NCBI GenBank assembly: GCA_024275615.1
Contig: JAJRYU010000465.1
Coordinates: 1-44,028 of the forward strand
Reading direction: 5' to 3'
DNA length: 44,028 bases
Source: Planctomycetota bacterium
Lineage (GTDB): Bacteria > Planctomycetota > GCA-002687715 > DRQF01
In this document: in pieces, positions 8,737-41,427 of the stretch
How positions within the stretch are numbered: the first letter of the stretch is position 1
Layout of the letters: every line of letters starts with the position of its first letter
Position numbers and translations under genes: made by a program
Notes under the pieces: generated by a model
What the model was told of the DNA's origin: nothing
Seen by the model: only the letters and a program-made list of their open reading frames with translations
Databases searched by the model: none

Positions 8737-11147
8737 GCAAACCCAGGGGTCGGAGTCGCTTTGTCAAAGACCTCCACGGGAAAACTATCGACTTGAATAG
8801 CGTCGTTACGAGCGGCCACCGCTTGCTTGAGAGTCTCGGCTTCTTGCTTAGTTATCACTCCAGCTTCAATGGCCTCGTATAAGCGTGCTTCTGGACGCCC
8901 GCGCTCGAGTCTCCCCTCCTTCATGCTTTGTTTGATCTTGCTGGCGATCCGAAGACCTTCAGTAGCGATCACAAGGGCTTGCTCCAAACGCCCCAAGGCC
9001 TCGTCCTTGGATTCGGGTACGTACATCAAGTCGAAAAGCCGCTCGCGTTGAGGACCCGGATGTCGAAGAATGGCTGCGACTTGACTCCCCAAGCGATCGT
9101 GGTGACTGCGCCCTATTGGGTTGAGTCGGGACCAAAGGGCCACTGGGCCGCCCATGATCTTGCCCAAATAGGGCACAGGAAAATTGGGGTAAGCGGCATC
9201 GAAGCCCTTTTGGATCTCTGCAAGGCACTCTTCGGCGGCGAGTTTGACCAGAGGTAAATCTTCTTCTCGCCGGCCGTCCGATTCATAGCGTTTCAGAACA
9301 GCGGTCAGAAAGTACATCCAAGAAAGAACATCTCCTAACCGTGCCGAAAGCCTCTCGTGGCGTTTCAGCTTACCGCCCAAGGAGATCATGGCGCAATCAG
9401 AAAGGAGGGCGAAGGAAGCAGAAGCCCACTTGAGCTTACGCCAATAGTGGGCAGTGGGGCCAGTGACCGGACTGCTCGCCAACCATCCTCGACTGACACT
9501 GAGCAGGACACTGCGAAACAAGTTCCTGGTAAAATGGCGCACGTGACTGAAGAAAGCGCGGTCAAATGCAACGATGTCATCCTTTGCAAGTGCGTCGACT
9601 TGGGCACGAGCCCATGGGTGACAGCGCATCGCACCTTGCCCGAATATGATCATCGAGCGAGTTAGGATGTTTGCACCTTCCACAGTAATCGCGATTGGAC
9701 TGGCGATATGACTGTTGGCCAAGATGTTTCGAGGACCTTGCGAAATACCAGCTCCGGCGACAATGTCCATTCCATCATTCGTAACTCGACGGGACATTTC
9801 AGTAAAATGACATTTGACAATCGCAGAAATCACCGAAGGTTTGTGTCCTGAGTCGAGAGCGGAGCAGGTGTAGCGTCGTGCCGCTTCCATGAGGTAGGTC
9901 ATGGCACCAATCCGAGACAAGGGTTCTTCGATGCCTTCAAATTTGCCGATTGGCATGCCAAACTGATAGCGCAACATGCTGTAGGCGCCGCTGGCCCGTG
10001 AAACCAACTTGGCGTTGGCCACCATGGCTGCAGGCAAAGCGATTCCTCGGCCAGCGGCGAGGCACTCCATGAGCATGCGCCAGCCTTGACCGGCAAAGGT
10101 GGGGCCACCAATAATCGTATCAACCGAAACGACGACGTTCTCACCGTAGATCGCACAGTTGTGAAACGGTACGCCGAGGGGGTCATGCCTTTCGTTTGCC
10201 GAAACCCCTGGAGTTTCTGTCGGAATGAGGGCACAAGTGATGCCAGGGGACACGCCTTGACCCAGGAGATTCTCAGGATCATGCAATTTGAAGGCTAGGC
10301 CAATGATGGTGCTGACAGTGGCCAGACTGGTATATCGTTTGTTCCAATTCAGCTCGAGCATGAGCTCGCCAGCTTCGTTCTTAAACACCTTCCCATCCGC
10401 TTCAATCGATCCGGCATCGCTTCCAGCGTTGGGTTCGGTGAGAGCAAAGCAAGGCATGTGCTCGCCACTGGCTAGTTTGGGGAGATATTCAGTTTTTTGT
10501 TCATCCGTACCATAGAGATGCAGGAGCTCTGCCGGGCCAAGGGAATTGGGAATCATCACGGTCACACTGAGAGCGAAGGACCTGGACGCCAATTTGTGAA
10601 CCACGGCACTCAAGCCACTCGAACTCAATTCCAAACCGCCATGTTCCTTCGAAACAATAAGACCGAAAAAACCGTTCTTCTTGAGAAAGGTCCATACCTC
10701 TGGAGGCAAGTCCTTGTCTTTCCAGCATTGTAGGTCATCAACCAAACGACAGACTTCTTCCACCGGCCCGTCCAAGAAGGCTTGTTCGTCAGGGCGCAGT
10801 ACCGTGTCCTTAGGTTCCAGGAGTTTCTTGGTATCAGGGTTGCCGGAGAATAACTCGCCATCCATCCAAACCGTCCCGGCTTCGAGAGCAACACGCTCCG
10901 TCTCCGAGATAACAGGTAGTAGGCCCGCTTTTTTGAGAAAGCCCGCAATTTTTCCGCCGAAGAGTCGAGACCGCAGAGGTGGAATACAAAAGAGTAAGAA
11001 TGGCAACACCAGAAGTACGATGAGCCACGTGGGGGCTCCCAGAAAGTAGAGCATGCCAGTAAAAGCTGCGGTCCAGATAATCAAGGGAGCCCCCAGGAAA
11101 CCTAAGATCAAGATCGCAATAGTGATCGCCAGTGTTGTCCACGTCAT
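8733..11147 (-). CDS. fadE: Long-form acyl-CoA dehydrogenase (FadE-type)
   Basis: The protein is 804 aa with N-terminal TM helices ([32 protein letters not shown]). An acyl-CoA dehydrogenase core follows ([40 protein letters not shown]). The long C-terminal helical domain resembles enterobacterial FadE. Confidence 0.9.
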
Positions 11148-17933: not shown

Positions 17934-19025
17934 ATGACAGAGACGATCGCCCCAAAAACCCTTGCCCGCATGCCAAAGGTTCTCCTTCACAATCACTTGG
18001 ACGGGAGTTTGCGACCACAGACAATCATTGAGTTGGCCCATGATGTTAAGGACCTCACCTTGGCCACTGAAGACCCAGAAGAGCTGGCTCAGTGGTTTTT
18101 TCGCGGTGCCAACAAGGGCAACTTAGTTGAGTATTTGGAGGGATTTGGCGTCACCTGCGGAGTCATGCAAACGGAAGAGGCTCTCACACGTGTCGCAACT
18201 GAGCTTATCGAAGATCTTCACGCCGATGGCGTAGTCTACACTGAAGTTCGCTTCGCACCATTGCTCCATGTTTCCAAGGGTCTTAACTACGAACAAGTCA
18301 TGAGTGCCGTCATTCGTGGTCTGGAACAAGGTAAGGCTAAGACCGGAGTCAGTTGGGGCATCATCGTCTGTGCTCTACGCAACATGGAGCCGAGCTTGTC
18401 GTTGGAAATGGCTGAATTGGCCGTCGCGTTCAGGGATCGGGGTACAGTTGGTTTTGACTTAGCTGGAGATGAAAACGGGCATCCTCCAAAAGCACACCTC
18501 AAGGCATTCCATTATTGCCAACGGGAGAATTTCAACATCACGATTCACGCCGGCGAAGCATTCGGTGCCGCGAGTATCTGGCAAGCCCTCCAATACTGTG
18601 GCGCCCATAGAATCGGCCATTGCACTCGTCTTGTCGAAGATATGACAATCCAAGACGGAAAAGTCACAGCGATGGGAACGCTGGCCGCCTACGTCCGTGA
18701 TCACCGAATTCCCTTGGAAATCTGCCTTCAAAGCAACGTCCACACAGGGGCTATTGCCGCCCTCGAAGACCATCCTTTCCGGCCCTATTTTGACGCGCGA
18801 TTCCGCGTCACGCTCAATACCGACAACTGCCTGATGTCGAATACCACGATGTCGGAAGAATTTGCCGTCGCCAACCGTACCTTCGGGCTCACGGCTACAG
18901 ACTTAGAAAAGGTCACCGTCAACGCCATGAAGAGCGCGTTCGTCGGCTACGACGAACGTCTGGTCTTGATCTATGAGAGTATCAAGGCTGGTTATCAAGT
19001 CATTCGGGATGAAGGTTTGATTTGA
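17934..19025 (+). CDS. add: Adenosine deaminase
   Basis: Signature motifs are LPKVLLHNHLDGSLRP, GFDLAGDE, ITIHAGEA, RIGHC and TLNTDN. Confidence 0.9.
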   Translation: MTETIAPKTLARMPKVLLHNHLDGSLRPQTIIELAHDVKDLTLATEDPEELAQWFFRGANKGNLVEYLEGFGVTCGVMQTEEALTRVATELIEDLHADGVVYTEVRFAPLLHVSKGLNYEQVMSAVIRGLEQGKAKTGVSWGIIVCALRNMEPSLSLEMAELAVAFRDRGTVGFDLAGDENGHPPKAHLKAFHYCQRENFNITIHAGEAFGAASIWQALQYCGAHRIGHCTRLVEDMTIQDGKVTAMGTLAAYVRDHRIPLEICLQSNVHTGAIAALEDHPFRPYFDARFRVTLNTDNCLMSNTTMSEEFAVANRTFGLTATDLEKVTVNAMKSAFVGYDERLVLIYESIKAGYQVIRDEGLI

Positions 19026-19093: not shown

Positions 19094-19729
19094 CTATTGA
19101 GCCGGATCGATGTCAATGAGAGCGAAGCGCTCGCTACCCTGGCGCCCGGGGGCTCGGACTGGTTCGTCGCATCTGAGATGCGCTTTCTCGCCTAAGACAG
19201 CCAACATGTCGCCCACGGAGATACCAAAAGGCGGGCCGCCATCCGCAAGTTCTTTCCCAAATGGGAAAATCAAAGCCCCCACAGTGCCGCCTTCTGGCAA
19301 AGCCGCCAGCACACTCGCGCCCCATTTTTGCCGCAAGTTTGGTGGAATGGCACAAAAGAAGGTGTGATCCCACCATAAGTCGTAGACTTCGCCTTCAGCC
19401 AGGCAGAAAGCGTCGCGCACAAGAAAGCGGGAACCTGAAGCCGTCAATTCTGGGAGTCGATGAGGAACCAATTCCTCTGCCAGATCAACGGCTGTCACAT
19501 CCCAACCGTGTTTTGCCAGACACAGAGCATCGTGCCCACGCCCACATCCAGGCACATAAGCTCGGCCCTTGCCGCCAAGCTCAACCATGCGCCTCAAGAG
19601 TTCTGGATGAGGTCCTCCCAAGTCCCAAGGAGAGACGGAATGCCGCCAAAAGTGATTCCAGAAAGACGGATGTTCGCTCGATTCCAACGGGACTTCGAAC
19701 CCCTCGGGTAGATGATCTTCAATTCCCAT
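19094..19729 (-). CDS. TPMT-family SAM-dependent (thiol/halide/chalcogen) methyltransferase
   Basis: The TPMT-family layout is present: FWNHFWRHSVSPWDLGGPHP, AYVPGCGRGHDALCLAKHGWDVTAVDLAE, WDHTFFCAIPP..R..W and GGPPFGISV. Confidence 0.7.
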   Translation of the reverse strand: MGIEDHLPEGFEVPLESSEHPSFWNHFWRHSVSPWDLGGPHPELLRRMVELGGKGRAYVPGCGRGHDALCLAKHGWDVTAVDLAEELVPHRLPELTASGSRFLVRDAFCLAEGEVYDLWWDHTFFCAIPPNLRQKWGASVLAALPEGGTVGALIFPFGKELADGGPPFGISVGDMLAVLGEKAHLRCDEPVRAPGRQGSERFALIDIDPAQ

Positions 19730-25595: not shown

Positions 25596-27122
25596 TTACT
25601 TGGTGCCAAAAACACGGCCATAGCGATAGTAGACTTCCAGGCACATAGTCATGAGAGCCGTTGAATACACTCGTCCCCCAGACTCCGCCCAAGGTCCCTT
25701 GGGATCCCACGATCCAGAGAAGGCACCGTCTACTCTCTGGCGATCAATAACAGCTTCCTTCATAGCGGCATTCCATTTCTTCCATGCGACACCGCCATAC
25801 TGAAACATGGCCAAAGTCCCGTAGTACCAGTAGTACATGTCGATCGAACCACGAGCTTGGTCCCAAACAGGGAGCTTCTTCAAGAGAAGATTCTCGATCC
25901 CCAGTTTTACCAGGCGGCTATTCTTGGGGTCTTCTCCTGAGAAAATGCGCGTGCAAATTCCTGCAGCTGTCATCGCTTCAGACTCGTCAGAAGGAAACTC
26001 GGCTTTCTTGCTTGGTTCGCGCGCCGTTGGCTCACCCGGTCTGACATAACCCACTCTACCGGTCTCTTCGCTAGTCATCTCAATGATGTAGTCCCGCGCC
26101 CATACCAGGCTCCGCTCGTCAAAGTCCAGCTTGGCATTCTTCGCAGCCTTCAAAACCATCGCCATCCAGCCAGTTACACTGACATCGTTTTGACTATTGG
26201 CCACACCATAGCGCCAAGCCTTGTAGGGATTCTGCATTGACAAGCAAAACGCGAGCCCCTTCTTTGCCGACCGCTTGATCGATGGCAACCGCGATAAGTC
26301 ATAGGCCTCAATCATGGCTAAGGTGGCGATCGCCTGGTTGTAGGAGAAATTAGAAATGCTCCTGCTGGTAAAACATCCTTCGCCATCCTGGCTTTTCATC
26401 AACCACCGTACACCTTTGGCGACGGTCATACGATAGTCTCCTCGCCTAGGCGACTCACCGGCACCGAGGAACGCCAAGAGTGCTAGCCCGGTCACGCCGG
26501 TATCATAGACTGCACCTCCGCGACTTCCCGCGAGACAAGGGCCGCCGCCGTCTTGGCATGAGAAACCATCTGCATCCCAAAACCCTGCTGGCGACTGATG
26601 CCGAGACAGCCACTCGAGCCCCTTGTCAACAACCTGTTCAGTCTTCTTGCTACCTTTGCGACGTCCACTGCGACGTCCTCCTCGCCCACTACCACCACCA
26701 GCACCACCGCCCAATCCAATGGCATCGTTCTTGTTGAAACTCGTCAAGGTCGCTTCACCAACAAAATCAGATTCACCTACCGTCTCTTCATAGGGCGCAT
26801 CAACATCGGTGGTGTCAGTCGTGTCAACAACTTCAATCTCGTCCGTCGGATCCGTGTCGTCCGGTTGCACCTCTGGGTCAGTCGTTGGCGGATCTATTTC
26901 GATGGGTTCGTCCGGAATCTCGTCAGCTTCTGCCAAGGTCACATTGGCCAAGGACTGAGATTCATCCTGGGGATCAGGAGAGACGAAGAGCATAAGGATG
27001 ACAACAATAAGAGCATGGAAGCCGCCTGAAAACAAGATCCAAGGCGTTCGGCTGAGTTGCTCCACAAGCACTTCGTTGAAGTCTTTTTGGGCACACGGGT
27101 AGCGTAGAATGTCGGCTGACAT
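25596..27122 (-). CDS. Membrane-anchored prenyltransferase/squalene-oxidase-repeat (alpha/alpha-toroid) protein
   Basis: The RBS is AAGGAGGttcccATG at 27122. One TM helix is followed by an acidic Pro/Asp/Thr linker and then a Gly/Arg tract. Repeat motifs are LEWLSRHQSPAGFWD, GVRWLMKSQDGEG and the C-terminal TALMTMCLEVYYRY. Confidence 0.8.
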   Translation of the reverse strand: MSADILRYPCAQKDFNEVLVEQLSRTPWILFSGGFHALIVVILMLFVSPDPQDESQSLANVTLAEADEIPDEPIEIDPPTTDPEVQPDDTDPTDEIEVVDTTDTTDVDAPYEETVGESDFVGEATLTSFNKNDAIGLGGGAGGGSGRGGRRSGRRKGSKKTEQVVDKGLEWLSRHQSPAGFWDADGFSCQDGGGPCLAGSRGGAVYDTGVTGLALLAFLGAGESPRRGDYRMTVAKGVRWLMKSQDGEGCFTSRSISNFSYNQAIATLAMIEAYDLSRLPSIKRSAKKGLAFCLSMQNPYKAWRYGVANSQNDVSVTGWMAMVLKAAKNAKLDFDERSLVWARDYIIEMTSEETGRVGYVRPGEPTAREPSKKAEFPSDESEAMTAAGICTRIFSGEDPKNSRLVKLGIENLLLKKLPVWDQARGSIDMYYWYYGTLAMFQYGGVAWKKWNAAMKEAVIDRQRVDGAFSGSWDPKGPWAESGGRVYSTALMTMCLEVYYRYGRVFGTK

Positions 27123-27312
27123 GGGAACCTCCTTGTGATGTTGCTTGATTCGCCGGCCCACTTTGCAGCTCATAGTTCTGAGTCCTGCAGAAGTGAACAT
27201 CTTTCGTCAGCCCCGGGGATGGTTGACAACTATGAGAACGATCAAGAATCGGAGCGGTTCATAGAAACTCCTCACAAAGGAAAAGGTTGCCGATCGTAAG
27301 CCGATACATGAC

Positions 27313-28368
27313 ATGGGCCTCCTCATCAGCTATACCACAGCTATGACAATCAAGACGACATCTCTTATCAGCGCCTTCTTCGTTGCTTTTTTCCTTTTTC
27401 CGCACTTAGGATCGGCACAGGAAATGGCCCAAGCAGGACAGGCTCTCCCAGACTTTCGTTTTCGGCAAGTCGTCATGAACAACGACGGCAGAGTCAGTCG
27501 GGACGACTTCGTTGGCCGCCCTTTGCTTCTTGAGTTTTGGGGCTTTCGCTGAGGGCCATGCATGGGCGTTGCCGTGCCGCATGCCGTTGAACTCGACAAG
27601 AAATATCGCCAGCAAGGTTTGGCCGTTGTCCTAGTCCACGTCCAAGACGGCCCAGTAGACTTAGCGGCATTGATGATGAAGAAATTCCCATCGAATACTG
27701 CCATGGTCACTGCAGACAATCCAGTCCCGGTCGGTGCATCAAGGAACCTGAAACTCCCTATGGCTGCATTGATCGGCGTTGACGGCAAGATCTTGGCCGT
27801 TGGTCACCGCACTAAGGTCGGCGCCTTGATCGATAAACTCATCCCTAAGGAACTCAAGAAGATGAATTCTGGTTGGGGTGCCGCAAAGGAAATCGCCAAG
27901 GCGAGATCCTTGATGCACGCAAAAAGCAAACTCACCGACGCCAAGAAGATCCTCGACGGCTTCCAAGCAAGGAACAAAACCATCCAGACAGACCTCAATC
28001 TTGCCCGTCACGAATTAGAATTGCGCTTTAGAACAGATCACAAATCCGTCAAGTATCTGATGGCCTCAGGGCAGTGGATCGATGCTAAGAAACAACTCCT
28101 TCGTTTGGACCGTGGCACGCAAGGCGTTCCCAAGTGGCAAGAGGCTTGCCAAAAACTCCAAGACAAGTTTGACGACTACATCGGCAAAGACGAACTCAAG
28201 CTCGACAAGGCCGTATCTAAGATCATCGCCCAGTCACGCCAAGGAGTAAAAAGTGGCATGATCGTCAAGATGCGAAAGATCGTCGCCAAGAAGGAGGGCC
28301 TTAAGGTCTACGGTCGAGCCATGTGGTACATCAGCGTCTGGAAGCGCCTAACGCTCTTAGGGAACTAG
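27313..28368 (+). CDS. Candidate selenoprotein: secreted TlpA/ResA-like thioredoxin-fold protein with UGA (27550-27552) at the first position of the redox motif (U-G-P-C), plus a helical C-terminal domain. The alternative reading is a nonsense-mutated pseudogene.
   Basis: Track ORFs 27313-27552 and 27562-28368 are in the same frame and separated only by TGA GGG CCA TGC. Read-through gives GRPLLLEFWGFR-U-GPCMGVAVPHAVELDKKYRQQGLAVVLV. A signal peptide is present only on the upstream part (an alternative start is ATG 27343, MTIKTT...). TGA acts as an ordinary stop elsewhere in the window. Confidence 0.55.
27560..27584 (+). other. SECIS-like stem-loop beginning 8 nt after the in-frame UGA
   Basis: gcatgggc (27560-27567) pairs with gcc-g-catgc (27576-27584), giving 8 bp with one bulged G (27579). 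The 8-nt apical loop, guugccgu, starts with GU. Confidence 0.35.
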
Positions 28369-28532: not shown

Positions 28533-29528
28533 CTACTTATCGGCATTCGCCTGATCGATCGCCATGAATGCCTTGCTTAGTTCCAAACAACGGGTAGCAC
28601 GCCGAGAGAGAAACGGGTCCTCGGAACTCGCGATGAAAGCAGTCAAACTGTCAACGACTTTCTGTGTGGCTTTGGCCTTAGCCAGCGGCTTGATCAATCT
28701 CAGGAGTTTCTTCTCCTGCTTGATGGCGGCCTTTTTGTATTTCGCCATGAATTCGGCCTCATTCTTCGCCACCTCATCTTCCCATTTCTTTCGACCACGA
28801 ACAGACTTGGTCAATGTTTTGCAAGCGGCACGTACATCTTTGTAGCGGCCTTCACGGTCGAGCCAACGGAGTTGGCGAATACGATGTGCGAACAGGTCGT
28901 TCATGTCATGAGCTGAGTCCGTGACTTCTTTGGGAACTCTCGAACCGACAGCCAACAAGTAGAAATACGCTTTCGATAGTGCACTGCCGCCAAAGGCGCG
29001 GGCACGAATCCCCACAGCAATTGTGTGATTGCCCCAGCCTTTCTTTCGCAAATCCAGTTGCCGCCTGATGGCCTTTTCGACTTTTTCTCTTTTGCCAATT
29101 TCCAAGTTGCGATGGAGCGGAAGCCCGCTCACAGAAATCCAGGTCAGTCGCGGAGAAGCGCTGACTTTGAGGTCCAACGGTGGGCTGGCCGAGGCACAAA
29201 GCCAAACAAGGGACTTTGGATTTATCCGCAGCAACCTCGCATACTCCAAAGTCGGTGTCGCTACAGTTTCTTCCGTCCAAAGAATGACAACCAGACCTTT
29301 CTTGGCATACTTTGATGCTAGTTGAGAAGACACCTTCATTGCCTCGGCCGATTTCTTGGCAACGACCACAACCACGGGATGGCCCTTGAGATCAGCTATG
29401 GTCTCGGAACCATCGTAATTATATAGGTCTTCGAAGTGCCAAAAAATGGGGTTCGCGGACTGCGCGGAAAGGGAAACGGTTAGGACGAGTAGCGCCAGAG
29501 AAGACCGTGTAGTGTAAGGAAGGATCAT
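28533..29528 (-). CDS. Secreted thioredoxin-fold-like protein lacking CxxC; distant paralog of the 27313-28368 gene
   Basis: It has a signal peptide (LALLVLTVSLSAQSA). The architecture matches its neighbour by eye: DG..L.GxP, ..KYxxxGLxVxL, LxxKKGWG..A..RA, and a helical Lys-rich tail containing KW.E. The position of the redox motif reads VVAKKSAEAM, with no Cys or Sec. Confidence 0.6.
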   Translation of the reverse strand: MILPYTTRSSLALLVLTVSLSAQSANPIFWHFEDLYNYDGSETIADLKGHPVVVVVAKKSAEAMKVSSQLASKYAKKGLVVILWTEETVATPTLEYARLLRINPKSLVWLCASASPPLDLKVSASPRLTWISVSGLPLHRNLEIGKREKVEKAIRRQLDLRKKGWGNHTIAVGIRARAFGGSALSKAYFYLLAVGSRVPKEVTDSAHDMNDLFAHRIRQLRWLDREGRYKDVRAACKTLTKSVRGRKKWEDEVAKNEAEFMAKYKKAAIKQEKKLLRLIKPLAKAKATQKVVDSLTAFIASSEDPFLSRRATRCLELSKAFMAIDQANADK

Positions 29529-30127
29529 TCTATGCTCCTATCAAGTTCAATGGGGCGACGGCGTCTTGACCCATGTTCACAAACTCGCTTTACCGTACAT
29601 GGCCAATGAACGACGTCAGACCTAATGCCTATTCATGATGCGAAAACATGGGGCAGGGCTAGACCTTCGTAGTAGGGAGACAAGGGACGACCCAAGAAAC
29701 GCCGAGAGTTAACTAGGGATTCTTTTTCCGGTCACGATATTTGCCAAATTCTGAGAATCCCGGCACTGATCGGTCGCCAGCTCCAGCAATCGAGCCTGGT
29801 TCTGCCACCGGCCAGTTCGGTGCTCCGTAAGTTTGGACCGTGGCAAACTGGCCGTTGGCATTCGCAGTGATGGACACATTGGACAGCAATATCGAGAGGA
29901 ACTTGTTCACGGTAATAGACCGCTTCTATTTTCTCGGGCAAGAAACCTACGCCTGCTATTGAATGTTACTGTCAAGTAGCACATTTCAATCGGACGGCCT
30001 TGGTGATGATATCAAACCCCAGAAACGAGGCGGGATCGGGTGAACAGCGCCATCTGAGTCTGGCATGAATATTGCGGAGAACCTCCCGGGAAGCGCATTC
30101 TCTACTCAAGACCCTACGGAAAACACC

Positions 30128-31858
30128 ATGTCATTGCGGAACACGATTCTCTTGGTCTTTCTTACGCTCCCCGCTTTCGCGCACGCACAACAGGCGCCGC
30201 TCACAACTACAGTCTCGCTGCCAAGCGCTGTTCCCGGGCCACCTTTTCTGGCCTGCACCGACGCGGGTGATGTCGACAATGATGGCTTCGGCGACTACGC
30301 CGTTGCCGATCCATACGAATTTGTCAATGGGCTGCCATCCGGCGGAAGGGTTCGTCTCATATCCGGCGCAACCGGTGCCACTTTGTCGTTGTTGACTGGG
30401 GCTTTGACTGGCGAAGTCTACGGCACGGCGATTGAGTCCGGAGACTTCAACGGCGATGGTAGATTAGATATCTTTGTTGTTGTCTCTTCGGTGACTTCCT
30501 GGCGCATCGAAATCGTTGATACCGCGACAGGAGGAATTCTCGGCAATATCATTGCACCCACCTCTACGTCTCCACCAAATCGTGTAGTCAACAGCCTGGA
30601 CTTTCAAGACATCAACGGAGATGGCCAGGTCGAACTGTTGCTGGCTGCCCAAGACTTCAGTGGCACAACCCTCACTGGTTATGTCTATCTCTTCGCCGGA
30701 GGGACCGGTACACTCATATCAACCCTTGTTGACAACACAGTTTATGATTTTGCTCAAAACGCCAAGTTCCTCGACGATCTCAATGCCGATGGTGTCCCTG
30801 AGATCCTGGTTGTTGCTCAGCAAATCCCTGTGACCGGCGCGCCAACGGCAACAGTCCCTTCTGGCCGCTACGGCGTATACGACACCGTCACCATGACGAA
30901 CCTCTATCAGGCCACCGGTGTTGCATTCGATGAAGAGTTAGCAAAACTCTACGCTGTTGTTGACGATCAAGACAACGATGGCTTCCTTGACTTCATTGTC
31001 TCCAAACAAGTCGTCACGTCGGGAACGTCAGCTTCAGTAAACCAATTCTATACGACGATTTCGGGACTGACCGGCGCGACGATACAAGTCAATCAGGGAG
31101 CAACTCTCCGTCTACCTCGTGGTCCCATGCTTCTTTGCACGGATCTGGATGGTGACGGCATGAAAGATCTTTCGGTTCGGAGCCAGGTTGTTGCGACGCC
31201 GCAGTTCCAGACCATTGACATCTATTCCTCGGCAACATTGGTACATCTGGATTCCCTCAGACTTCCCGCCAATGCCGCGAACTACAGATTCAGCTATGCT
31301 GTGCTTCCAGACCCATCGGCAACTGGCTACGACGATTTCATCATCGATTCCTATGTGCAATTCTCAACGTCCTACCAGGCTGACCGTATTGCCGTGAGAC
31401 CAGTCCTGTCGCCTCTGGCGGCTGGAAATCATCCCTTGGGGGCCGAACTGCTCAAGGTCAATAACAGCTCTGGGATACCCGCGCGGCGTGTCGACATTGC
31501 TGTGAGTGCACCTTTCACTATCAAGTTCGAATCAGACTCCACGACCACCGGCCCAACAGATTTTCTTATCTTTGGCATGATTGGTGTGCCAGACGCGTCG
31601 ACAGTCTTTGTGTCTTCGATCGGCAGTTTCGTGTTTCCTCCACGGCCCGCCGCGCCGGGATTGCCCTGGCTATTCACGCTTGCAGATTCAGTCGCCTATG
31701 ACCCCGGTGCCCTCTTCACAGTGGGTCCAGCTCCCTACGGTCTTTCAGCTCCCTTGGGTATTGCTTTTCCTGTAACGTTTGTCCTGCAAGGAGTCTCGAT
31801 CACGGGCGGAGGAGCAAATTTGGCCATCTCAAACGCCATCTTGGTGGACATCAGGTAG
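30128..31858 (+). CDS. Secreted FG-GAP (integrin-alpha-like) beta-propeller protein with a shared C-terminal module
   Basis: The signal peptide is at ATG 30128 (MSLRNTILLVFLTLPAFAHAQ). The Ca-binding-type repeats are DVDNDGFGDYAV, GDFNGDGRLDIFV, QDINGDGQVELLL, DDLNADGVPEILV, DDQDNDGFLDFIV and TDLDGDGMKDLSV. The C-terminal 148 aa (31412-31855) are homologous by eye to 39652-40125. Confidence 0.8.
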   Translation: MSLRNTILLVFLTLPAFAHAQQAPLTTTVSLPSAVPGPPFLACTDAGDVDNDGFGDYAVADPYEFVNGLPSGGRVRLISGATGATLSLLTGALTGEVYGTAIESGDFNGDGRLDIFVVVSSVTSWRIEIVDTATGGILGNIIAPTSTSPPNRVVNSLDFQDINGDGQVELLLAAQDFSGTTLTGYVYLFAGGTGTLISTLVDNTVYDFAQNAKFLDDLNADGVPEILVVAQQIPVTGAPTATVPSGRYGVYDTVTMTNLYQATGVAFDEELAKLYAVVDDQDNDGFLDFIVSKQVVTSGTSASVNQFYTTISGLTGATIQVNQGATLRLPRGPMLLCTDLDGDGMKDLSVRSQVVATPQFQTIDIYSSATLVHLDSLRLPANAANYRFSYAVLPDPSATGYDDFIIDSYVQFSTSYQADRIAVRPVLSPLAAGNHPLGAELLKVNNSSGIPARRVDIAVSAPFTIKFESDSTTTGPTDFLIFGMIGVPDASTVFVSSIGSFVFPPRPAAPGLPWLFTLADSVAYDPGALFTVGPAPYGLSAPLGIAFPVTFVLQGVSITGGGANLAISNAILVDIR

Positions 31859-31900
31859 CACGACTTCCGATTCCTGTTTTCATGTGGCCGCTTAAGATTA

Positions 31901-31970
31901 GCATGGCCGTGGCAATATTATTGGGGCCACCCGACGATAGGTTGGCGTCTATAATATTGCCACAACATGC
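31901..31970. repeat. Long inverted repeat (5 + 13 bp stem) in the leader/promoter region of the helicase gene
   Basis: gtggcaatattat (31909-31921) is the perfect reverse complement of ataatattgccac (31951-31963). The flanking gcatg (31901-31905) pairs with catgc (31966-31970). The spacer is 29 nt. The right arm contains TATAAT (31950-31955). Confidence 0.7.
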
Positions 31971-31987
31971 GAAAACAAGGAATGTAG

Positions 31988-33940
31988 ATGAGTGACACGA
32001 GCGAAGTTGCTAGAGAAATCCTGAAGGACAGATTCGGATTCGACCAATTCAAACCCGGGCAAGAAGACGTCATTGGACATCTTCTGTCCGGTCACTCTGC
32101 AGCTGCGGTGTTCCCCACCGGCGGCGGCAAGTCGCTGTGCTACCAACTTCCGGCCTTGGCGCTACCAGGCCTCACCGTTGTTGTTTCGCCCCTTATTGCT
32201 CTGATGAAGGACCAAGTGGATGCTTTGGGAGCCCTGGGGATTGGCGCCGTACGATTGGACTCTTCGCTGGACAAGGATGCTTACCGCGACGCCATGGAAG
32301 GGATCCGGCGTGGACGCATCTCTCTCGTCTATGTTGCGCCGGAACGATTCAACAATGAGCGCTTTCGCGAATTCATTCAGGCCCAGAAGATCGCGCTCTT
32401 TGCCGTGGACGAAGCACATTGCATTTCCGAGTGGGGGCACAATTTTCGTCCGGACTATCTCAAACTTGCCCAGTTCGCCAAAACGGCAGGTGCTGAGCGC
32501 GTATTCGCCCTGACAGCGACTGCGACCCCGGATGTCTTGGACGAGATGTGCCGACTCTTTGCAATCGACCCAGAGTGCGCAGTCCGAACCGGCTTCTATC
32601 GAGCGAATCTCTCTCTGCACGTCCGAGCCACTCATCCATCAAGTCGTGATGTTGCTCTCTTGGACGAATTGAATTCTCACCCTCCGGGGCCGACGATCAT
32701 CTATGTGACCGTGCAAAAATCGGCGGAACGTGTCGCCGAATTCCTGCGTCAATCTGGGCGCGACGCCAAAGCCTATCATGCGGGAATGAGCGCCGAAGAG
32801 CGAGCGGCCACCCAGGAGTGGTTCTTTCCCTGTCAAGCTGGCATCGTCGTGGCCACCATTGCTTTCGGAATGGGCATCGACAAATCGGACATTCGCTATG
32901 TTCATCACTACAATTTAGCCAAGAGTTTTGAAGGACTCTCACAGGAAATTGGGCGGGCTGGACGAGATGGGAAACCGTCACGATGCGTGACGTTCTACTG
33001 CCCAGAAGATCTGGTGACATTGGAGAATTTTGTCTTAGGTGATACACCCACTCTAGCTGCCGTGAGGAGTTTTCTTGACGATATTTTCTCTCAGGGAGAT
33101 CAATTGGAACTTGCGCTTCACAGTTTGTCTGCGGCCCACGACATTCGCATCCTCGTTCTTCGCACGCTCTTGGTCTATCTCGAATTGGAGGGGTTGATTG
33201 AAGGCGGCACGCCAATTTACACGTCCTACCGCTTCATTCCTCAGGTTTCTTCAACCGAAATCCTCAGCGCCTATGAGAACGATAGACGCCCGTTTCTGAG
33301 CGAGCTCTTTAAGTTGTCCAAAAAAGGGCGGACGTGGTTCACCCTTGATGCTGCCAACGCAGCAAGCGCGCTTGGTGTCGATCGCCTTGCCGTTGTGAGG
33401 GCCTTAGATGAACTGGCGGAAAGAGGTTTCTTCGAATTAGAAGCTAAATCCGTCAAACATCGTTTTACCGTCTTGAGACGTCCACAAGATCAAGGCGCGC
33501 TAGGGCAAGCGCTTTTCAGCAGGCTTTGTCAGCGAGAGGAAAGGGACATTCAACGTCTCGAGGACGTCGTTCAGTTGCTTCAATCAGACCAGTGTATTGT
33601 GAACGCACTGGCGGAGTACTTCGGAGAGAGACGCACACAGCCTTGTGGGCATTGCAGTGTTTGTTTGCAAGAAGACCGAGGACAATTCCGCTTCTGCGAC
33701 GTCGATCCTGATTTCGAATGGCCGGATTTTCGGGCCATCGCTCTCATAGCCCCCCAAGTCCTGGCAACCCCCCGTTCATTGGCGCGTTTCCTCTGTGGCA
33801 TCAACTCTCCGGCAATCTCCAAGGCGCGGCTTAAGAAGAATGACAGCTTCGGTTTGCTTGCAGCTTTGCCCTTCGATCAAGTACTGGCTCAAGTTGGCAA
33901 GGCAAAAGGCGGGTTAGACGATGTCAAAATCGCCAAGTGA
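31988..33940 (+). CDS. recQ: RecQ-family ATP-dependent DNA helicase
   Basis: The RBS is AAGGAatgtagATG. Helicase motifs are FKPGQEDVI, PTGGGKSLCYQLPA, VVSPLIALMKDQV, DEAHCISEWGHNFRPDY, ALTATAT, YHAGMS, ATIAFGMGIDKSDIRYVHHYN and QEIGRAGRDG. A CGHCSVC cluster lies near the C-terminus. I recognise no obvious HRDC domain. Confidence 0.85.
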   Translation: MSDTSEVAREILKDRFGFDQFKPGQEDVIGHLLSGHSAAAVFPTGGGKSLCYQLPALALPGLTVVVSPLIALMKDQVDALGALGIGAVRLDSSLDKDAYRDAMEGIRRGRISLVYVAPERFNNERFREFIQAQKIALFAVDEAHCISEWGHNFRPDYLKLAQFAKTAGAERVFALTATATPDVLDEMCRLFAIDPECAVRTGFYRANLSLHVRATHPSSRDVALLDELNSHPPGPTIIYVTVQKSAERVAEFLRQSGRDAKAYHAGMSAEERAATQEWFFPCQAGIVVATIAFGMGIDKSDIRYVHHYNLAKSFEGLSQEIGRAGRDGKPSRCVTFYCPEDLVTLENFVLGDTPTLAAVRSFLDDIFSQGDQLELALHSLSAAHDIRILVLRTLLVYLELEGLIEGGTPIYTSYRFIPQVSSTEILSAYENDRRPFLSELFKLSKKGRTWFTLDAANAASALGVDRLAVVRALDELAERGFFELEAKSVKHRFTVLRRPQDQGALGQALFSRLCQREERDIQRLEDVVQLLQSDQCIVNALAEYFGERRTQPCGHCSVCLQEDRGQFRFCDVDPDFEWPDFRAIALIAPQVLATPRSLARFLCGINSPAISKARLKKNDSFGLLAALPFDQVLAQVGKAKGGLDDVKIAK

Positions 33941-35008
33941 GAAGTACCACTCGTTCATCAGATCGCGCTCGGTGGCAAACTCCGGGGCATAGGTATGAGA
34001 TACGAGCCGAAATTGAGTCTTTTCCAAGTCGTAACCGAGATCTTCAAACACGCGGGATTCCGGAACATTGTGATTGAGGAAACACTTGACGCTGGTCATG
34101 CCACTGCGCCTAGCTGCCTCCTCGCAAACTTTGATGAGCGCCTCAGACGCTCCCGTCCTGTCCATGTCAACCAGCCAATCAGCAATGACAAAATGTGGTT
34201 GGTCGAGCCACCCCGCACGGCAGACAGCCGATGCCACCAAGACACCATCTTCTGGATCCCGTAACTCAAAGGTCAAATAGTCAAAATGGGGATTCTTGCG
34301 GTAGCGCCAGTCCCAAAACTCTCGATTGCGCCAAGTAATGATGCGATGTTTGTCCTTGACCCGACTCCAAAGATCGTCATGGTCGGAAGCAAAATCTGTG
34401 GTCATCGACACTTGGTAGGTCGTCCCCAGTCCTTTTACTTCTGTTGAGAGATCTGTTTGAACGTCCTGTGGGTTGACGGCCTTGTTGTGAACATAGGCCT
34501 TGGTCATGGGCACGTAGTAGCACGTCTGAGACCCAAGACGGTAGGCCAGAGGATTGGGGAGCCCCATTTGAAAGCACTCATCTTCCAAATGCCCATGCGC
34601 GTACGAATGATTGAGAAGAGTGAGTGCAAAAAGCCCCTTCTTCTTCAGGCCGCTCCTGCATTTGGGGTGAACCATGGAGTCAACGATCTGTGAAAACAGC
34701 ACATCACGATCAAAAACTTTGGCCTTGGTCAGAAGACCAGTGTATTGACTCACAACTGTTCCATCCGCCAACTTGCCCAAGTAGATGTGCATGCCATTCG
34801 GATTATCACGGAATTCCCAGTTCCATTGATCACGTGTCCGCTCAACCTTGAAGACCGTCCTAAAGAGCTCAAGAATGCTCTCCTCGTCTCCAGGTTGATA
34901 GGGTCCGATCTTGACTGGACCAAGACGAGTGTCCAGCTCACTCAGGGGTTTTTCGGTCTTGACGATGAACTTGACTGCTGAGCGTCTTGTGCCTTTTGCA
35001 TCGGTCAT
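33914..35008 (-). CDS. GNAT-like (two-lobe) acetyltransferase-family protein
   Basis: The N-terminal lobe reads YQPGDEESILELFRTVF..W.WEFRDNPNG. The C-terminal lobe has an acetyl-CoA-like region (EALIKVCEEAARRSGMTSVKCFLN). Its 3' end overlaps the helicase 3' end by 27 nt. Confidence 0.55.
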   Translation of the reverse strand: MTDAKGTRRSAVKFIVKTEKPLSELDTRLGPVKIGPYQPGDEESILELFRTVFKVERTRDQWNWEFRDNPNGMHIYLGKLADGTVVSQYTGLLTKAKVFDRDVLFSQIVDSMVHPKCRSGLKKKGLFALTLLNHSYAHGHLEDECFQMGLPNPLAYRLGSQTCYYVPMTKAYVHNKAVNPQDVQTDLSTEVKGLGTTYQVSMTTDFASDHDDLWSRVKDKHRIITWRNREFWDWRYRKNPHFDYLTFELRDPEDGVLVASAVCRAGWLDQPHFVIADWLVDMDRTGASEALIKVCEEAARRSGMTSVKCFLNHNVPESRVFEDLGYDLEKTQFRLVSHTYAPEFATERDLMNEWYFSLGDFDIV

Positions 35009-35082: not shown

Positions 35083-37719
35083 TCAATGATGTTGAGTTTC
35101 TCTGTTGCCTTCGCTCAAGGCACGACCGGAACCCGCCACACAACGTGCGTGAAATATCGCATTCAAATATAGGCGCTCGGTTCCCCGCCAATAGGCGCGA
35201 AAATTCATGTCGTCGGCGAAACGAACGACCACACCCGCCCCAACCCGGTCAACACTTGCCGCAGGAGTTTCGGCCAGAGATTTCTGGGCGGTTGCGCTGG
35301 CAAATCCACTCAAGAGCGGATCTTTGAGATAGCGCATTGGATTACTAGTCGACCCCTTTGAAGCCAGCATAGGTGTTGTCCCCTTGCGCCACAGCGCAAC
35401 TTTGCTGTCAGCAAAACCCCAACCAAGGGGATGAGTGATATCGAGACTAGCCTTGAAGATCGCGCCGCCGATTCGCCTTTTTGCCGAATTCTTGTTGCGG
35501 TCGGCGTAGGTCCCCAGGACCTTGGCAGCCACCTTCTTCTTCTCCTTGGTCTTGGATTTCGCTGCCTTCAAGCCCAAGATATCTGTCCCAGCCCAACGGG
35601 CAGCGCTCCTTTGTGTGATCAAAATACCGCCACGCGAAAGCCAGCGCTTGAGATCGTCCTTTTTCTTGCCAAGGGCGCTTTCAGAGCCCGACACCCCCAA
35701 GATGTGGGTATAGTTGGCTAAGTTAAGGCGTTCAAGTTGCCGCCCTTCAATGAGGGAAGTTCTGACTCCAAGCCTAGCATCAAGAAGATGCCAGACCTCG
35801 CCCGCCTCGTAGGAGGAAACCCTATCCCCCACCACGATGAGAGCTTTCACCGGACGCAAGGACCCAACCGTGGGGCTACCCAACTCAACACCTTTTTTTG
35901 TCATGCCACTCTTGATGGCGAAGACCTGAGTGCCAAGTGTTCGAGCTTCCTGGTCAACAATCTTGCTGACCTCCGCAAAGGGGAGTGTTTGGACGCCTCG
36001 GGGAATCACGATACTGCCGCGGTCAAACTTGCGTGTGAGTGCATCACCACACAGTTGTGCGGCAAGAGGTGAACCAAGAGCTAGGGCTTCAACTCCTTGG
36101 TCCAAAAGTCGATTCAAGAGTTTGGCCGCTTCGAATGAACTCCAGTGAAACATGAAGGCGTAGGGTTGAGGTGCGCCTTGAGCCACGGCGTTTGTGACAC
36201 CACCTTCATTTTGATTCATCTTCAATGTCGACATGTCGAGAGATTTGATTTCCCGGGCATCGAGACCAACATAGTCCAAGTCGAAAGCAGCGAACATGTT
36301 CCAAGCGGACACGTCGTAGAATACCGGATCAAGAAATTCAGTGCGAATCTCAAAGAGTGACTTCAACAGGCGATACTGAGGTTGACGGCCAACGACGACA
36401 AAGGCTTCATTTGCCTTAAACTTCAGCTTTCCTTTGGCGAAGTCTGCCCTCAAGGATTTGACTTCAATGTGATGGCGACCCAAGAGCTCAACCAACTTGC
36501 TCGCTCGGCTGGGTGATTCAGGTGAAGAAAAAACCCAAGCCTTGGTGTCGTCAGCAGCAGCAGCATCGAGTGCGGACTTGCAGAACTCCCGCTGGTATTC
36601 CAGAAGATCCAAACGCATGTTCAGAGCTGCTTCATGGCTAGAAAGTGAAGTCTTCAGTTGATTGCGAATAGTGAATGGGAACGTGAGCTTGCCGAAACGA
36701 TTCATTTGTGCATGACCACGAGAACTAGCTTGCTCAAACAAGATGCCTACCGAGCCATGCACATCCGGATAGGTCGAGCCTTTACCAAAATAGAAGTCGT
36801 CGTAAGACTCGCGCGTGTAATAGAGCGAGCCAATTTCATCAAGAGCCTGCGCATGAAACTGGGCCACTCGTGCGGTGAGGTCATAGTTCTTGGCAGGAAT
36901 GAGCGGGTTGTGTCGACTGCGCACACCGGGCTGAAAAAAGTAGCTGGAGTTAGTGCCCATCTCGTGAAAGTCCGTGACGATATTAGGCCGCCAGGCATGA
37001 AAGACCCGAAGGCGGGCTTGGCTTTCTGGGTTTTGACCGAGGAGCCAATCTCGGTTGAGGTCAAACCAATAGTGATTGCTACGACCGCTAGGCCAGGGCT
37101 GACGATGCTCCCGATGATTCGGATCTGCGATCGCCCGCTTGCCATGGTGCATGTTGGCCCAATGGGCAAAACGACCCAGGCCATCAGGATTCAAGCAAGG
37201 GTCCAAGAGCACAATTGAGTCTCTTAGCAGCGCTTCGATCCGAGCGCCTTGGGCTGCGGCGAGGTGATAGGCATAGAGCAAGGATGCGTTGGCGCCGCTG
37301 GGTTCATCGCCATGCACGCTGTAACCGATCCACAAGACAACGGGCATAGACTCCATGGCTGGAGGTTGTCGGTTCGGGTCCCGCAACTGCTCTCTTTGTT
37401 CGCGTATTTCTGGCAGGCGTGCCAAGTTCTCCTTTGCACTGATCGTCAAGATTACCTGGGGGCGGCCTTCATGGGTCCGGCCATAGATCTGGAATTGACA
37501 GCGGTCCGAGGCTCGGGCAAGTGCTTGAAGGTACGTCACTATTTGGTCAGGTCGCACGTGCCAATCACCAACTTCATAACCAAGTACACTCTTGGGTGTC
37601 GGTATGTTCACGTCGTAGGTGACATCTTGGGGCAGATAGTAGTCCAAGCCAGATTGTGCCGGTGTCCTCAGTGCCCATAGGTTGACTAGGAGAAACAAGA
37701 CAGCGAGATTCTTCATCAT
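35083..37719 (-). CDS. Secreted M14-family zinc carboxypeptidase-like protein (large, multi-domain)
   Basis: The RBS is GAGGAtcgaaATGATG at 37719, followed by a signal peptide (MMKNLAVLFLLVNLWALRTPAQS). Zinc motifs are YSVHGDEPSG and FHEMG. I treat the 131-codon open extension to 38112 as non-coding. Confidence 0.85.
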   Translation of the reverse strand: MMKNLAVLFLLVNLWALRTPAQSGLDYYLPQDVTYDVNIPTPKSVLGYEVGDWHVRPDQIVTYLQALARASDRCQFQIYGRTHEGRPQVILTISAKENLARLPEIREQREQLRDPNRQPPAMESMPVVLWIGYSVHGDEPSGANASLLYAYHLAAAQGARIEALLRDSIVLLDPCLNPDGLGRFAHWANMHHGKRAIADPNHREHRQPWPSGRSNHYWFDLNRDWLLGQNPESQARLRVFHAWRPNIVTDFHEMGTNSSYFFQPGVRSRHNPLIPAKNYDLTARVAQFHAQALDEIGSLYYTRESYDDFYFGKGSTYPDVHGSVGILFEQASSRGHAQMNRFGKLTFPFTIRNQLKTSLSSHEAALNMRLDLLEYQREFCKSALDAAAADDTKAWVFSSPESPSRASKLVELLGRHHIEVKSLRADFAKGKLKFKANEAFVVVGRQPQYRLLKSLFEIRTEFLDPVFYDVSAWNMFAAFDLDYVGLDAREIKSLDMSTLKMNQNEGGVTNAVAQGAPQPYAFMFHWSSFEAAKLLNRLLDQGVEALALGSPLAAQLCGDALTRKFDRGSIVIPRGVQTLPFAEVSKIVDQEARTLGTQVFAIKSGMTKKGVELGSPTVGSLRPVKALIVVGDRVSSYEAGEVWHLLDARLGVRTSLIEGRQLERLNLANYTHILGVSGSESALGKKKDDLKRWLSRGGILITQRSAARWAGTDILGLKAAKSKTKEKKKVAAKVLGTYADRNKNSAKRRIGGAIFKASLDITHPLGWGFADSKVALWRKGTTPMLASKGSTSNPMRYLKDPLLSGFASATAQKSLAETPAASVDRVGAGVVVRFADDMNFRAYWRGTERLYLNAIFHARCVAGSGRALSEGNRETQHH

Positions 37720-38253
37720 TTCGATCCTCAAGCAAGTAGAGTCCAAAAGTCTACTCTGAGGAAGAGTTGTTGGCGATATGGGAGGCAGCGATAGAAGGAG
37801 TTTCTGAAGAAACAGGAGAGAAAAATCGGCCACGCGGTTTTGATCTCGGGATCCCGTGCCTGGGTATCCCTCTTGATGTGCGTACCAAGAACAAGAAAGA
37901 TGAAGAGTTGAAACACACATTTCAACTCCAAGAGACCAGCGCCGCGTGACGTGCTCTGCTAATCGCAAGTGCTGTGCCAAGACCCGGAAATGGGTCATTT
38001 CCTCTTGGAAGCGCCCATTCAAGCTGATTTCAGGCAATAAATTCCACCGAAACCAAGCATGGACGTCACCAAGTCGTAACAACGTCACAATTCGGCAACG
38101 CCCAATCAGCAAATTGAATACTCTATTCGCGCCACCGGTCGATCACAGCAATAGGGGCAGTCGATCGCAGCAGTACGCGTCCAAGCAAGCGACCCGTCAA
38201 GGTCATGAACTTAGTCAACCCTCGTTCTCACGGCGCAGAAATAGGAGGCTCCC

Positions 38254-40233: not shown

Positions 40234-41427
40234 TCACGGTAGCGAGCCGAGTTCCATATCGATCTTCTTGCCAAGCGTGCGCCAAGAATAAAAAGCACCG
40301 GTGGATCGGACTTGTGTCTCTGCCCCGCCATAGACAACGGCTGGTTCTAAGTCGCTGTCGGTGACGATTTTCTTGAGCTTAAGAGGAGCCTTGATGAACT
40401 CTGCCAGGGGTGTCGCTGATGACTTGCACTCAATCGCCATGAGTTGATCGGCTGATAGCTGCAACAGAATATCAACTTCAAAAGTCTGATCCCGCCAGAA
40501 GAACGCTCGCGGCCGTTCACCCCGGTTATAGAAGGCCTTCAATGATTCGACGACACACCAATTTTCGAATACAGCACCGCGAAATGGTGAGAGTGTCAGG
40601 TCGTTAGGCGACCGAATGTCCAGTATGCGGCAGAGTAATCCAGTGTCGTAGAAATAGATCTTCGGGCTCTTGATAATGCGCTTAGAGAAATTCTTGAAGT
40701 AGGGTTCAAAGCGAAATGCGATGAATCCTGTTTCAAGAATGTCCATCCAGCTCTTGACCGTATTGTGGCTCAGACCTGCGTCATTGCCGATACCTGTAAG
40801 GTCCAACAACTGGCTCGCGCGCCCAGCACAAAGGCGCAAGAATCTGCGAAATGCGTTCAGATCCGAGATGTTTCGAATCGAGCGTACGTCCCTCTCCACA
40901 TAAGTTTGGGCATAACTGTCCAGCCATGTGGTAGCCGCTTCTGGTGCATCATGGACGAGAGGATAGCCGCCACGCAAAAGGTGCTCTTCGAGTGTGGCGG
41001 TTGCACCGCCGGCGTCTTGCAGCTCAATGTAAGACAGAGGAAGCAAATGGCGTATGGCAGTTCGACCGGCGAGGGATTGACTCACATGATCCAAAAGGAG
41101 CAGATTGTGCGACCCCGTGACTGCGAAGCGGCCAGGCACGCGGTCTTTGTCCACCGTCGCTTGAATTTGGGAAAGAAGTTTTGGTGCTCGCTGAATCTCA
41201 TCGATGATCACTTCGTGGTCGTAATTCGCGATGAATCCTAAGGGATCTTCTTGGGCAAACTCCAACATGTGAGGTTCTTCGAGATTCACGTATCGCCACG
41301 TTGGCAGCAGCCTTTGCAACAAGGTGCTCTTTCCGGACTGCCGAGGGCCGGTAAGTGTTAGGACTGGAAAAGTCTCCAAATCAGTGAGACAGACTTGTCC
41401 AAGCGTGCGTTCAAGAAATTTCATCAC
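40234..41427 (-). CDS. AAA-type ATPase with a DUF4143-like C-terminal domain
   Basis: Walker A is LTGPRQSGKSTLL. The Walker B context is VIIDEIQRAP. The C-terminal region is typical of the ATPase/DUF4143 family (FENWCVVESLK). Confidence 0.8.
   Translation of the reverse strand: MMKFLERTLGQVCLTDLETFPVLTLTGPRQSGKSTLLQRLLPTWRYVNLEEPHMLEFAQEDPLGFIANYDHEVIIDEIQRAPKLLSQIQATVDKDRVPGRFAVTGSHNLLLLDHVSQSLAGRTAIRHLLPLSYIELQDAGGATATLEEHLLRGGYPLVHDAPEAATTWLDSYAQTYVERDVRSIRNISDLNAFRRFLRLCAGRASQLLDLTGIGNDAGLSHNTVKSWMDILETGFIAFRFEPYFKNFSKRIIKSPKIYFYDTGLLCRILDIRSPNDLTLSPFRGAVFENWCVVESLKAFYNRGERPRAFFWRDQTFEVDILLQLSADQLMAIECKSSATPLAEFIKAPLKLKKIVTDSDLEPAVVYGGAETQVRSTGAFYSWRTLGKKIDMELGSLP

Follow-up and report, generated by a model that had tools for sequence, protein, structure and literature searches.

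The window analysed here, a 44,028-nt stretch of a contig (JAJRYU010000465.1, assembly GCA_024275615.1) from a Planctomycetota bacterium, contains on its forward strand a TlpA/ResA-like gene whose frame is crossed by a UGA codon and which very probably encodes a selenoprotein. The original prediction, made by inspection of this DNA, had proposed that two open reading frames (ORFs) at this locus form a single frame split only by a TGA at positions 27550–27552. One-frame translation of 27313–28368 agreed: the TGA is the lone interruption and the frame ends with TAG at 28366–28368. In the ORF list, the upstream ORF terminates at the TGA (27550–27552) and the downstream ORF covers 27562–28368. The single-frame translation around the stop is ...LLLEFWGFR*GPCMGVAVPHAVELD..., the read-through protein across the UGA is ...GRPLLLEFWGFR-[UGA]-GPCMGVAVPHAVELDKKY..., and the peptide context of the putative selenocysteine (Sec) site is FWGFR-U-GPCMGVAVPHAVELDK. 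As proposed, the UGA falls at the first Cys position of a W-x-x-C-G-P-C-type motif, here U-G-P-C, and homologues carry Cys at the same column. The features of the gene are as follows.

27343..28368, + strand: complete predicted selenoprotein coding sequence (CDS), 341 codons plus TAG stop, with Sec as residue 70; one internal TGA; alternative upstream ATG at 27313.
27343..27420, + strand: predicted signal peptide (MTIKTTSLISAFFVAFFLFPHLGSA/QE cleavage), with a basic n-region, a hydrophobic core and a GSA-Q cleavage-like site; read from the sequence.
27424..27870, + strand: TlpA/ResA/DsbE-like thioredoxin-fold (Redoxin) domain, from Pfam Redoxin, the NCBIfam ResA subfamily and the AlphaFold2 model of homologue P0010.
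27550..27552, + strand: in-frame UGA that probably encodes selenocysteine and takes up the first, nucleophilic, position of U-G-P-C; TGA in 11/11 members, Cys in 12 homologue clusters.
27558..27587, + strand: hairpin of the window copy resembling a selenocysteine insertion sequence (SECIS), minimum free energy (MFE) fold; core 27560–27567 paired with 27576–27584, G27579 bulged, loop GUUGCCGU.
27559..27561, + strand: TGC codon, predicted resolving Cys of UxxC; this Cys is invariant in 11 members (TGC in 9/11, TGT in 2/11).
27574..27585, + strand: GUGCCGCAUGCC, the 3′ part of the conserved loop plus the 3′ arm (codons Val-Pro-His-Ala), equal to alignment columns 34–45.
27871..28365, + strand: G-W-G linker and all-helical C-terminal domain of ~165 residues; the tail is conserved family-wide and helical in the model.

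Originally, the gene had been placed at 27313–28368. The frame and end of this assignment hold, whereas the start is likely to be ATG 27343 and not 27313, because MTIKTT lines up with MNIKTT in the L003 orthologue (L numbers denote fetched loci) and the hexamer TATACC is found in common 6 nt upstream. This hexamer lies exactly 6 nt 5′ of the start ATG in three of three close orthologues (window 27331–27336, L001 ~9758–9763, L003 ~1050–1055), and a Shine-Dalgarno sequence is not obvious in their start region; perhaps the hexamer serves as a -10-like box for a transcript with no leader or almost none. Over their full lengths, the window protein and its read-through orthologues from L001 and L003 align at 58–61% identity.

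Relatives were found by several searches. A word-indexed protein search matched four proteins, all of them equivalent to the downstream fragment and with no Cys homologue among them; on their contigs an ORF of ~66 codons stops at a TGA and the called gene begins 24 nt further on. A first metagenome scan with peptide patterns gave no match, and a scan of a genome collection returned only the metagenome-assembled genome (MAG) already found. A metagenome scan with a DNA pattern, in which any TGN was allowed at the site, returned 13 loci, of which L006 and L008 are real relatives and the others are chance matches in non-coding frames. These two are more distant members of the family, ~31% identical to the window protein, with an unchanged architecture and again a TGA. 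In all five further representatives from a profile search (see below) whose DNA was read (L019, L022, L023, L024, L026 and L027, one pair coming from two representatives), the TGA lies exactly 24 nt before the called start; P0012, seen as a gene table only, has the same layout as the TGA-carrying relatives.

TGA occupies the identical codon in all 11 distinct family members with readable DNA, and neither TAA (0) nor TAG (0) occurs there. Additional stops or frameshifts, which the original prediction had named as a sign of decay, were seen in none of the 11 TGA-carrying relatives. Identities among the members aligned in full (window, L001, L003, L006 and L008) are about 31–65%, and the site motifs include WGFR-U-GPC, WGVH-U-GPC, WGTR-U-GGC, WGTH-U-PPC, WGTH-U-STC and WGIN-U-GPC. 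The closest relatives, which come from a Planctomycetota MAG (GCA_047639315.1) and a Sequence Read Archive assembly, read WGYR-TGA-GPCLGHAVPHA and WGFK-TGA-GPCLAHAVPHA; GCA_040263335.1 and GCA_041601735.1 are also among the assemblies carrying family members. Between the window and L001, nonsynonymous and synonymous divergence (pN/pS) was 0.28/0.63 upstream of the TGA and 0.26/0.65 downstream, and other pairs gave similar values. By this measure purifying selection acts on both flanks of the TGA.

A profile of the four fragments, compared with 1.84 billion representative proteins, matched 152 clusters at E values up to 0.001. The census that follows covers the best 150 of these 152.

First residue is precisely the Val of V-P-x-A, 8 codons past the TGA (truncated calls): 50 clusters.
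Other proteins of 240–299 aa, mostly starting within ~20 residues of the V-P-x-A site: 17 clusters.
Full length (300 aa or more): 65 clusters.
Short fragments: 18 clusters.

A CxxC motif aligns with U-x-x-C in 12 of the 65 full-length clusters (P0010, 23, 25, 31, 39, 43, 94, 108, 121, 128, 144 and 146), the form in P0010 being WGNH-CPPC-LGFAVPHA. Homologues thus carry either codon at the column that the original prediction had singled out, TGA in 11/11 family members and Cys in 12 full-length clusters, and the Sec/Cys replacement that it had invoked for a UxxC thioredoxin-fold protein is borne out by these Cys forms. The other full-length clusters have SxxC (5), WxxC (1) or no redox motif (~45 of the 65; P0030, P0033, P0034, P0038, P0041, P0047 and others). 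The motif-less paralogues retain both the helical tail and a thioredoxin-like domain, but their active site is devoid of Cys, Sec and Ser; they look redox-inactive, which suggests a scaffold function independent of the redox centre.

At 50% identity, Sec forms account for about 50–67 clusters and Cys forms for 12, so that Sec forms appear to outnumber Cys forms, which is unusual. No full-length U-containing protein was present among the best 150 representatives. In the database entries that were inspected, all named family members are called "hypothetical protein", and the Sec forms are truncated unnamed or hypothetical ORFs of ~260 residues from which the active site is missing. Fifty clusters begin with M/V-P-x-A because gene callers start at the GUG in the hairpin loop. 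The truncated calls begin at this GUG (Val), inside the SECIS apical loop and 24 nt past the UGA, in seven relatives (L001 10001, L019 3466, L022 5220, L023 850, L024 10001, L026 1652 and L027 156). The M/V-P-x-A N-terminal signature could help to find mis-annotated members, and the finding corrects a systematic mis-annotation of the family's Sec forms.

The predicted protein is a distant member of the TlpA/ResA superfamily. With Cys put in place of the stop, it barely reaches the Pfam Redoxin cutoff, at 27.0 bits (cutoff 26.6). The scores are 47 bits with the NCBIfam ResA subfamily (E = 2.6e-12; cutoff 170) and 19.9 bits with the NCBIfam TlpA equivalog (cutoff 230); a PDB sequence search returned a Redoxin domain protein at 1.8e-08. 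Because the ResA and TlpA scores lie far under the family cutoffs, the profiles argue for a superfamily relative and not for an orthologue of ResA or TlpA. An AlphaFold2 model of the Cys homologue P0010, built from a 66-sequence family alignment (predicted local distance difference test, pLDDT, 94; predicted template modelling score, pTM, 0.89), has a thioredoxin fold in which Cys66, aligned with Sec, follows strand 56–62 and lies at the N-terminus of helix 67–87 (alpha-1). A G-W-G linker and eight helices (residues 178–331) come next, with pLDDT >90 in the tail. In a Foldseek search against the PDB the N-terminal domain alone finds matches (DsbE 3gl3, SPOA0173 3eyt, the DipZ C-terminal domain, ResA and CcmG; target template modelling score, TM, ~0.75). 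For the helical tail, neither Pfam nor NCBIfam returned a family, and the similarity seen was a weak, TPR-like one. The contention that neither ORF makes sense alone is supported by the P0010 model, in which the split falls between strand beta-1 and helix alpha-1. A segment equivalent to the signal peptide is present in all read-through relatives, and the signal peptide is probably cleavable, which would make the protein periplasmic.

Just 3′ of the UGA the family shares a hairpin. The 11 TGA-containing genes were aligned without gaps, with the TGA at columns 10–12, and covariation was compared with a background of 500 shuffles. RNAalifold, run unguided, predicts exactly the helix in which columns 26–32 pair with columns 39–45 (7 bp, starting 13 nt past the UGA) around the loop (C/G)GUGCC. 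Standard pairs occupy 87% of the cells of this helix across the 11 sequences, and sliding the 3′ partner by 1–3 columns lowers pairing to 30–47%. The fixed-register pair count understates the helix, because L023, as read from its sequence, forms the same helix around a 7-nt loop, its 3′ arm being displaced by one nucleotide. Double compensatory changes occur at five of the seven pairs (at columns 29/42, for example, A-U is replaced by C-G, G-C or U-A), and the covariation score of 0.473, compared with 0.139 ± 0.051 for the shuffles, is reached by 0/500 of them. With five sequences covariation was uninformative, the 3′ arm being invariant; it became informative once distant members had been added (nine, then 11 sequences). 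Conservation of the hairpin in TGA-containing orthologues, on which the original prediction had made its case depend, is in this way documented by base changes that preserve pairing.

PMC13188914 gives a bacterial SECIS model with a 3–9 nt loop, a 4–16 bp stem, a G in the first two loop positions, 16–37 nt spacing and an MFE <= -7.5 kcal/mol. The family element agrees with it, having a 6-nt loop with a G within its opening two nucleotides followed by U, a 7-bp stem and 20 nt from UGA to loop, and its helix energy is -9 to -13 kcal/mol in 7/11 members. The codons GTG CCG CAT GCC are identical in the window, L001, L003, L006 and L008, and a single codon is kept in only 10 of 50 other columns with an invariant residue (Fisher p = 0.02 for codon conservation in the 11-codon window after the TGA); synonymous sites of the 3′ arm are, on this comparison, frozen. 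In L028, the Cys-form gene that encodes P0010, AVPHA is written GCG GTC CCG CAT GCG and the helix is essentially gone (-1.2 kcal/mol).

The window copy carries a variant of this element. Its hairpin core has 8 bp, one bulge and an 8-nt loop opening with GU, at -11.7 kcal/mol. The hairpin that had been proposed at 27560–27584 therefore exists, with its bulge and GU loop, but its significance when taken alone does not stand, since shuffled sequences fold equally well, and it is an atypical variant of the family element. At the canonical 5′ arm, the window has the codon GUU where most relatives have CAU or UAU; two positions upstream, a Leu codon that is CUC or CUU in nearly all relatives is AUG in the window. 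With this Leu-to-Met change a GCAUG arm arises 6 nt upstream of where the canonical 5′ arm lies, and this new arm pairs with the GCAUGC 3′ arm, which is retained. We read the window hairpin as a replacement of the 5′ arm, that is, as compensation, because the gene is otherwise intact and under selection, and we infer that the relocated hairpin still binds SelB. The window copy would then provide a natural example of SECIS remodelling by replacement of the 5′ arm.

A conserved TGA, constrained flanks, Cys homologues, a covarying hairpin and a thioredoxin fold together make up the comparative signature of this family, and they support the selenoprotein interpretation of the original prediction. 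We are very confident that the family is a genuine selenoprotein family, and with high confidence we consider the window gene (27343–28368) to be a functional selenoprotein, an exported thiol:disulfide oxidoreductase with UGA as Sec. The occurrence of Sec insertion and a reductase or isomerase activity are what we infer from this signature. Several observations weigh against our interpretation. No selA, selB, selC or selD gene lies within the 44-kb window or in the fetched loci; a scan of the window at Rfam gathering thresholds together with ARAGORN found nothing, tRNA-Sec included, and ARAGORN found no tRNA in nine fetched loci. The hairpin of the window by itself folds no better than dinucleotide shuffles (z = +1.27 for 27545–27620; z = -0.17 for 27550–27594, where 80/200 shuffles fold at least as well), and its loop starts 15 nt past the UGA, one below the published 16–37 nt. 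The canonical helix keeps 4/7 pairs in the window, at -0.7 kcal/mol, and the alternative 5′ arm is needed. Regarding the family element, L028 is a single Cys-form control gene, and conservation of the Val-Pro residues places a constraint of its own on the loop GUGCC.

These observations bear most directly on an explanation in which the family is a genuine selenoprotein family and the window copy is failing, its SECIS weakened, its UGA mostly terminating and the gene poorly expressed or decaying. Loss of the canonical 5′ arm (His/Tyr codon to GUU), which leaves -0.7 kcal/mol where most relatives have -9 to -13 kcal/mol, fits such a failure, as does an alternative hairpin whose 15-nt spacing and 8-nt loop are atypical for the family and whose energy is no better than that of shuffles. 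Yet the 341-codon frame has stayed intact, free of additional stops and frameshifts, pN is well under pS on both sides of the TGA in comparisons with the closest orthologues, and the CUC to AUG change builds a new arm at -11.7 kcal/mol, which looks like compensation and not decay; the loop, stem, G in the loop and energy of the alternative hairpin moreover lie within the bacterial SECIS model. We regard a failing copy as improbable. That a nonsense mutation split a Cys-type TlpA-like gene, leaving a pseudogene, would account for one in-frame stop inside a domain, which resembles a fresh nonsense mutation, and for the two ORFs that annotators call. Such a mutation would not be expected at the same codon in 11/11 diverged relatives free of other lesions, which at 31–65% identity are not assembly copies of one sequence, nor with both pieces under purifying selection and a covarying hairpin downstream. 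With pN well below pS on both sides of a TGA conserved in 11/11 members, we rejected the pseudogene and give it next to no probability.

It is also quite unlikely that the UGA is decoded as something other than Sec, be it through a reassigned code (Trp or Gly), near-cognate read-through or two coupled polypeptides. UGA is the leakiest stop codon, and a GTG or ATG start used by gene callers lies 10–24 nt downstream. Code reassignment is excluded, however, because TGA terminates 8 of the 28 other long ORFs of the window (TAG 12, TAA 8), in line with the original prediction that it is a normal stop elsewhere in this DNA and not reassigned genome-wide; the TGA codons at 13524 and 16649 were seen directly, and the 28 include the ORF that ends at 19025. 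The site aligns with a catalytic Cys in homologues and not with Trp or Gly, and a covarying hairpin of SECIS geometry would have no role in such decoding. Two polypeptides would, according to the model, cut the thioredoxin fold between strand beta-1 and helix alpha-1, so that neither piece could fold alone. Normal TGA stops, Cys at the aligned site, the split fold and the covarying hairpin led us to reject both reassignment and two coupled ORFs. When the window was screened for same-frame ORF pairs split by TGA, no second candidate was found in otherwise uncoded space.

If the gene is a functional selenoprotein gene, as we consider very probable, its mRNA would be translated from 27343, and at UGA 27550 the downstream hairpin within the CDS would recruit SelB·GTP·Sec-tRNA(Sec), leading to insertion of Sec. 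The Sec would stand in for the nucleophilic Cys where helix alpha-1 begins, at its N-terminus, and form a U-G-P-C redox centre. In the exported protein, the Sec70 selenolate and the Cys73 thiol would act as a redox pair in thiol:disulfide (selenenylsulfide) exchange with periplasmic substrates, and the helical tail may plausibly bind a partner or substrate. The Sec-insertion, redox and tail steps are modelled on established bacterial Sec decoding and on TlpA/ResA-type enzymes.

Around the gene, the window is collinear with the contig of a Planctomycetota MAG, in the order FadB-like ECH/3HCDH, thiolase, adenosine deaminase, HAD hydrolase, esterase, EAL-HDOD protein, divergent SQHop_cyclase_C-like repeat protein, selenoprotein gene, GNAT and M14 peptidase. 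This neighbour synteny is conserved in L001, L002 and L026, and the window has several lineage-specific insertions. The adjoining gene at 25596–27200 (-) encodes a divergent 534-aa protein with a borderline SQHop_cyclase_C match (prenyltransferase/terpene-cyclase repeat) and adjoins the selenoprotein gene in L001 and L002 too. On the other side, ~5.4 kb (28533–33940) is inserted in the window compared with L001, L002 and L026, where the GNAT (Acetyltransf_9) and M14 peptidase genes directly follow the selenoprotein gene; the insert encodes a 331-aa protein without a Pfam family, a 597-aa FG-GAP repeat protein and a 650-aa RecQ-like helicase, and past it lie GNAT (33914–35008) and the M14 peptidase (35083–38112). 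No cytochrome c maturation genes (ccm, res/resBC) were found among the neighbours of the selenoprotein gene, and the functional clue given by the neighbourhood is limited to its conserved synteny.

Two other genes of the window deserve mention. The gene at 19094–19729 (-) codes for a member of the thiopurine S-methyltransferase family (Pfam TPMT, 1.7e-24) that the syntenic stretch of L001 and L002 lacks. In bacteria, TPMT (Tpm) converts selenite and selenocysteine by methylation into volatile dimethylselenides, and the gene, at a distance of 8 kb from the one for the selenoprotein, would be a second selenium-related one. Genes for an AAA_14/DUF4143 ATPase are present in the window (40234–41427, -) and, close to the family member, in L022 (791–2065, -), an unrelated locus; this is probably a coincidence, because such genes are common and mobile.

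The finding adds a well-supported selenoprotein gene and its SECIS to a poorly studied Planctomycetota-like lineage, with the implication that selenocysteine is used there; a complete Sec machinery has been documented in Planctomycetes (PMC4807772). The Sec, Cys, Ser and motif-less forms present on one scaffold offer a natural series for studying the preference for Sec over Cys in extracytoplasmic thiol:disulfide exchange. The family has no dedicated Pfam or NCBIfam model and its entries are truncated hypotheticals, in keeping with the earlier suggestion of an undescribed Sec-containing family. That suggestion has to be narrowed, since TlpA-like (cd02966) UxxC selenoprotein families are already in the literature: Table 1 of PMC13188914 lists TlpA-like ones, and the published families include 'thiol-disulfide isomerase-like' and 'Prx-like 3' (e.g. 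MGB1650493.1). The family may be absent from the 111 catalogued selenoprotein families. Tentatively, and with slightly more doubt than belief, we propose a new selenoprotein family, Sec-dominant and with its SECIS loop on Val-Pro codons, in which an exported TlpA-like oxidoreductase is joined to a C-terminal domain made up of helices; its members come from Planctomycetota-like bacteria and from other uncultured ones. The mechanism is a textbook one, and this kind of selenoprotein is already known.

UxxC thioredoxin-fold proteins are the commonest kind of predicted bacterial selenoprotein. The family resembles them in having Sec for the N-terminal Cys of CxxC in a TlpA/Redoxin-like fold, Cys homologues and a putative SECIS within the ORF just 3′ of the UGA; it differs in its ~165-residue helical C-terminal domain, the dominance of Sec forms and its many motif-less paralogues. 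ResA, TlpA and CcmG/DsbE are extracytoplasmic thiol:disulfide reductases of cytochrome c maturation and copper-centre assembly. With these proteins the family shares the fold (TM ~0.75 to 3gl3, ResA 1st9/1su9 and CcmG 2b1k), a W-x-x-[C/U]-x-x-C motif after strand beta-1 and an N-terminal export signal, whereas the window protein has Sec for Cys, an extra helical domain and no ccm or res genes nearby. The family hairpin is comparable to the SECIS of the Escherichia coli fdhF type and to the bSECISearch consensus, a stem-loop directly 3′ of the UGA with G-U opening a small apical loop ~20 nt from the UGA. Its sequence is unrelated to that of fdhF, the loop (C/G)GUGCC being built on invariant Val-Pro codons, and the window copy also differs in its shifted 5′ arm, 8-nt loop and 15-nt spacing.

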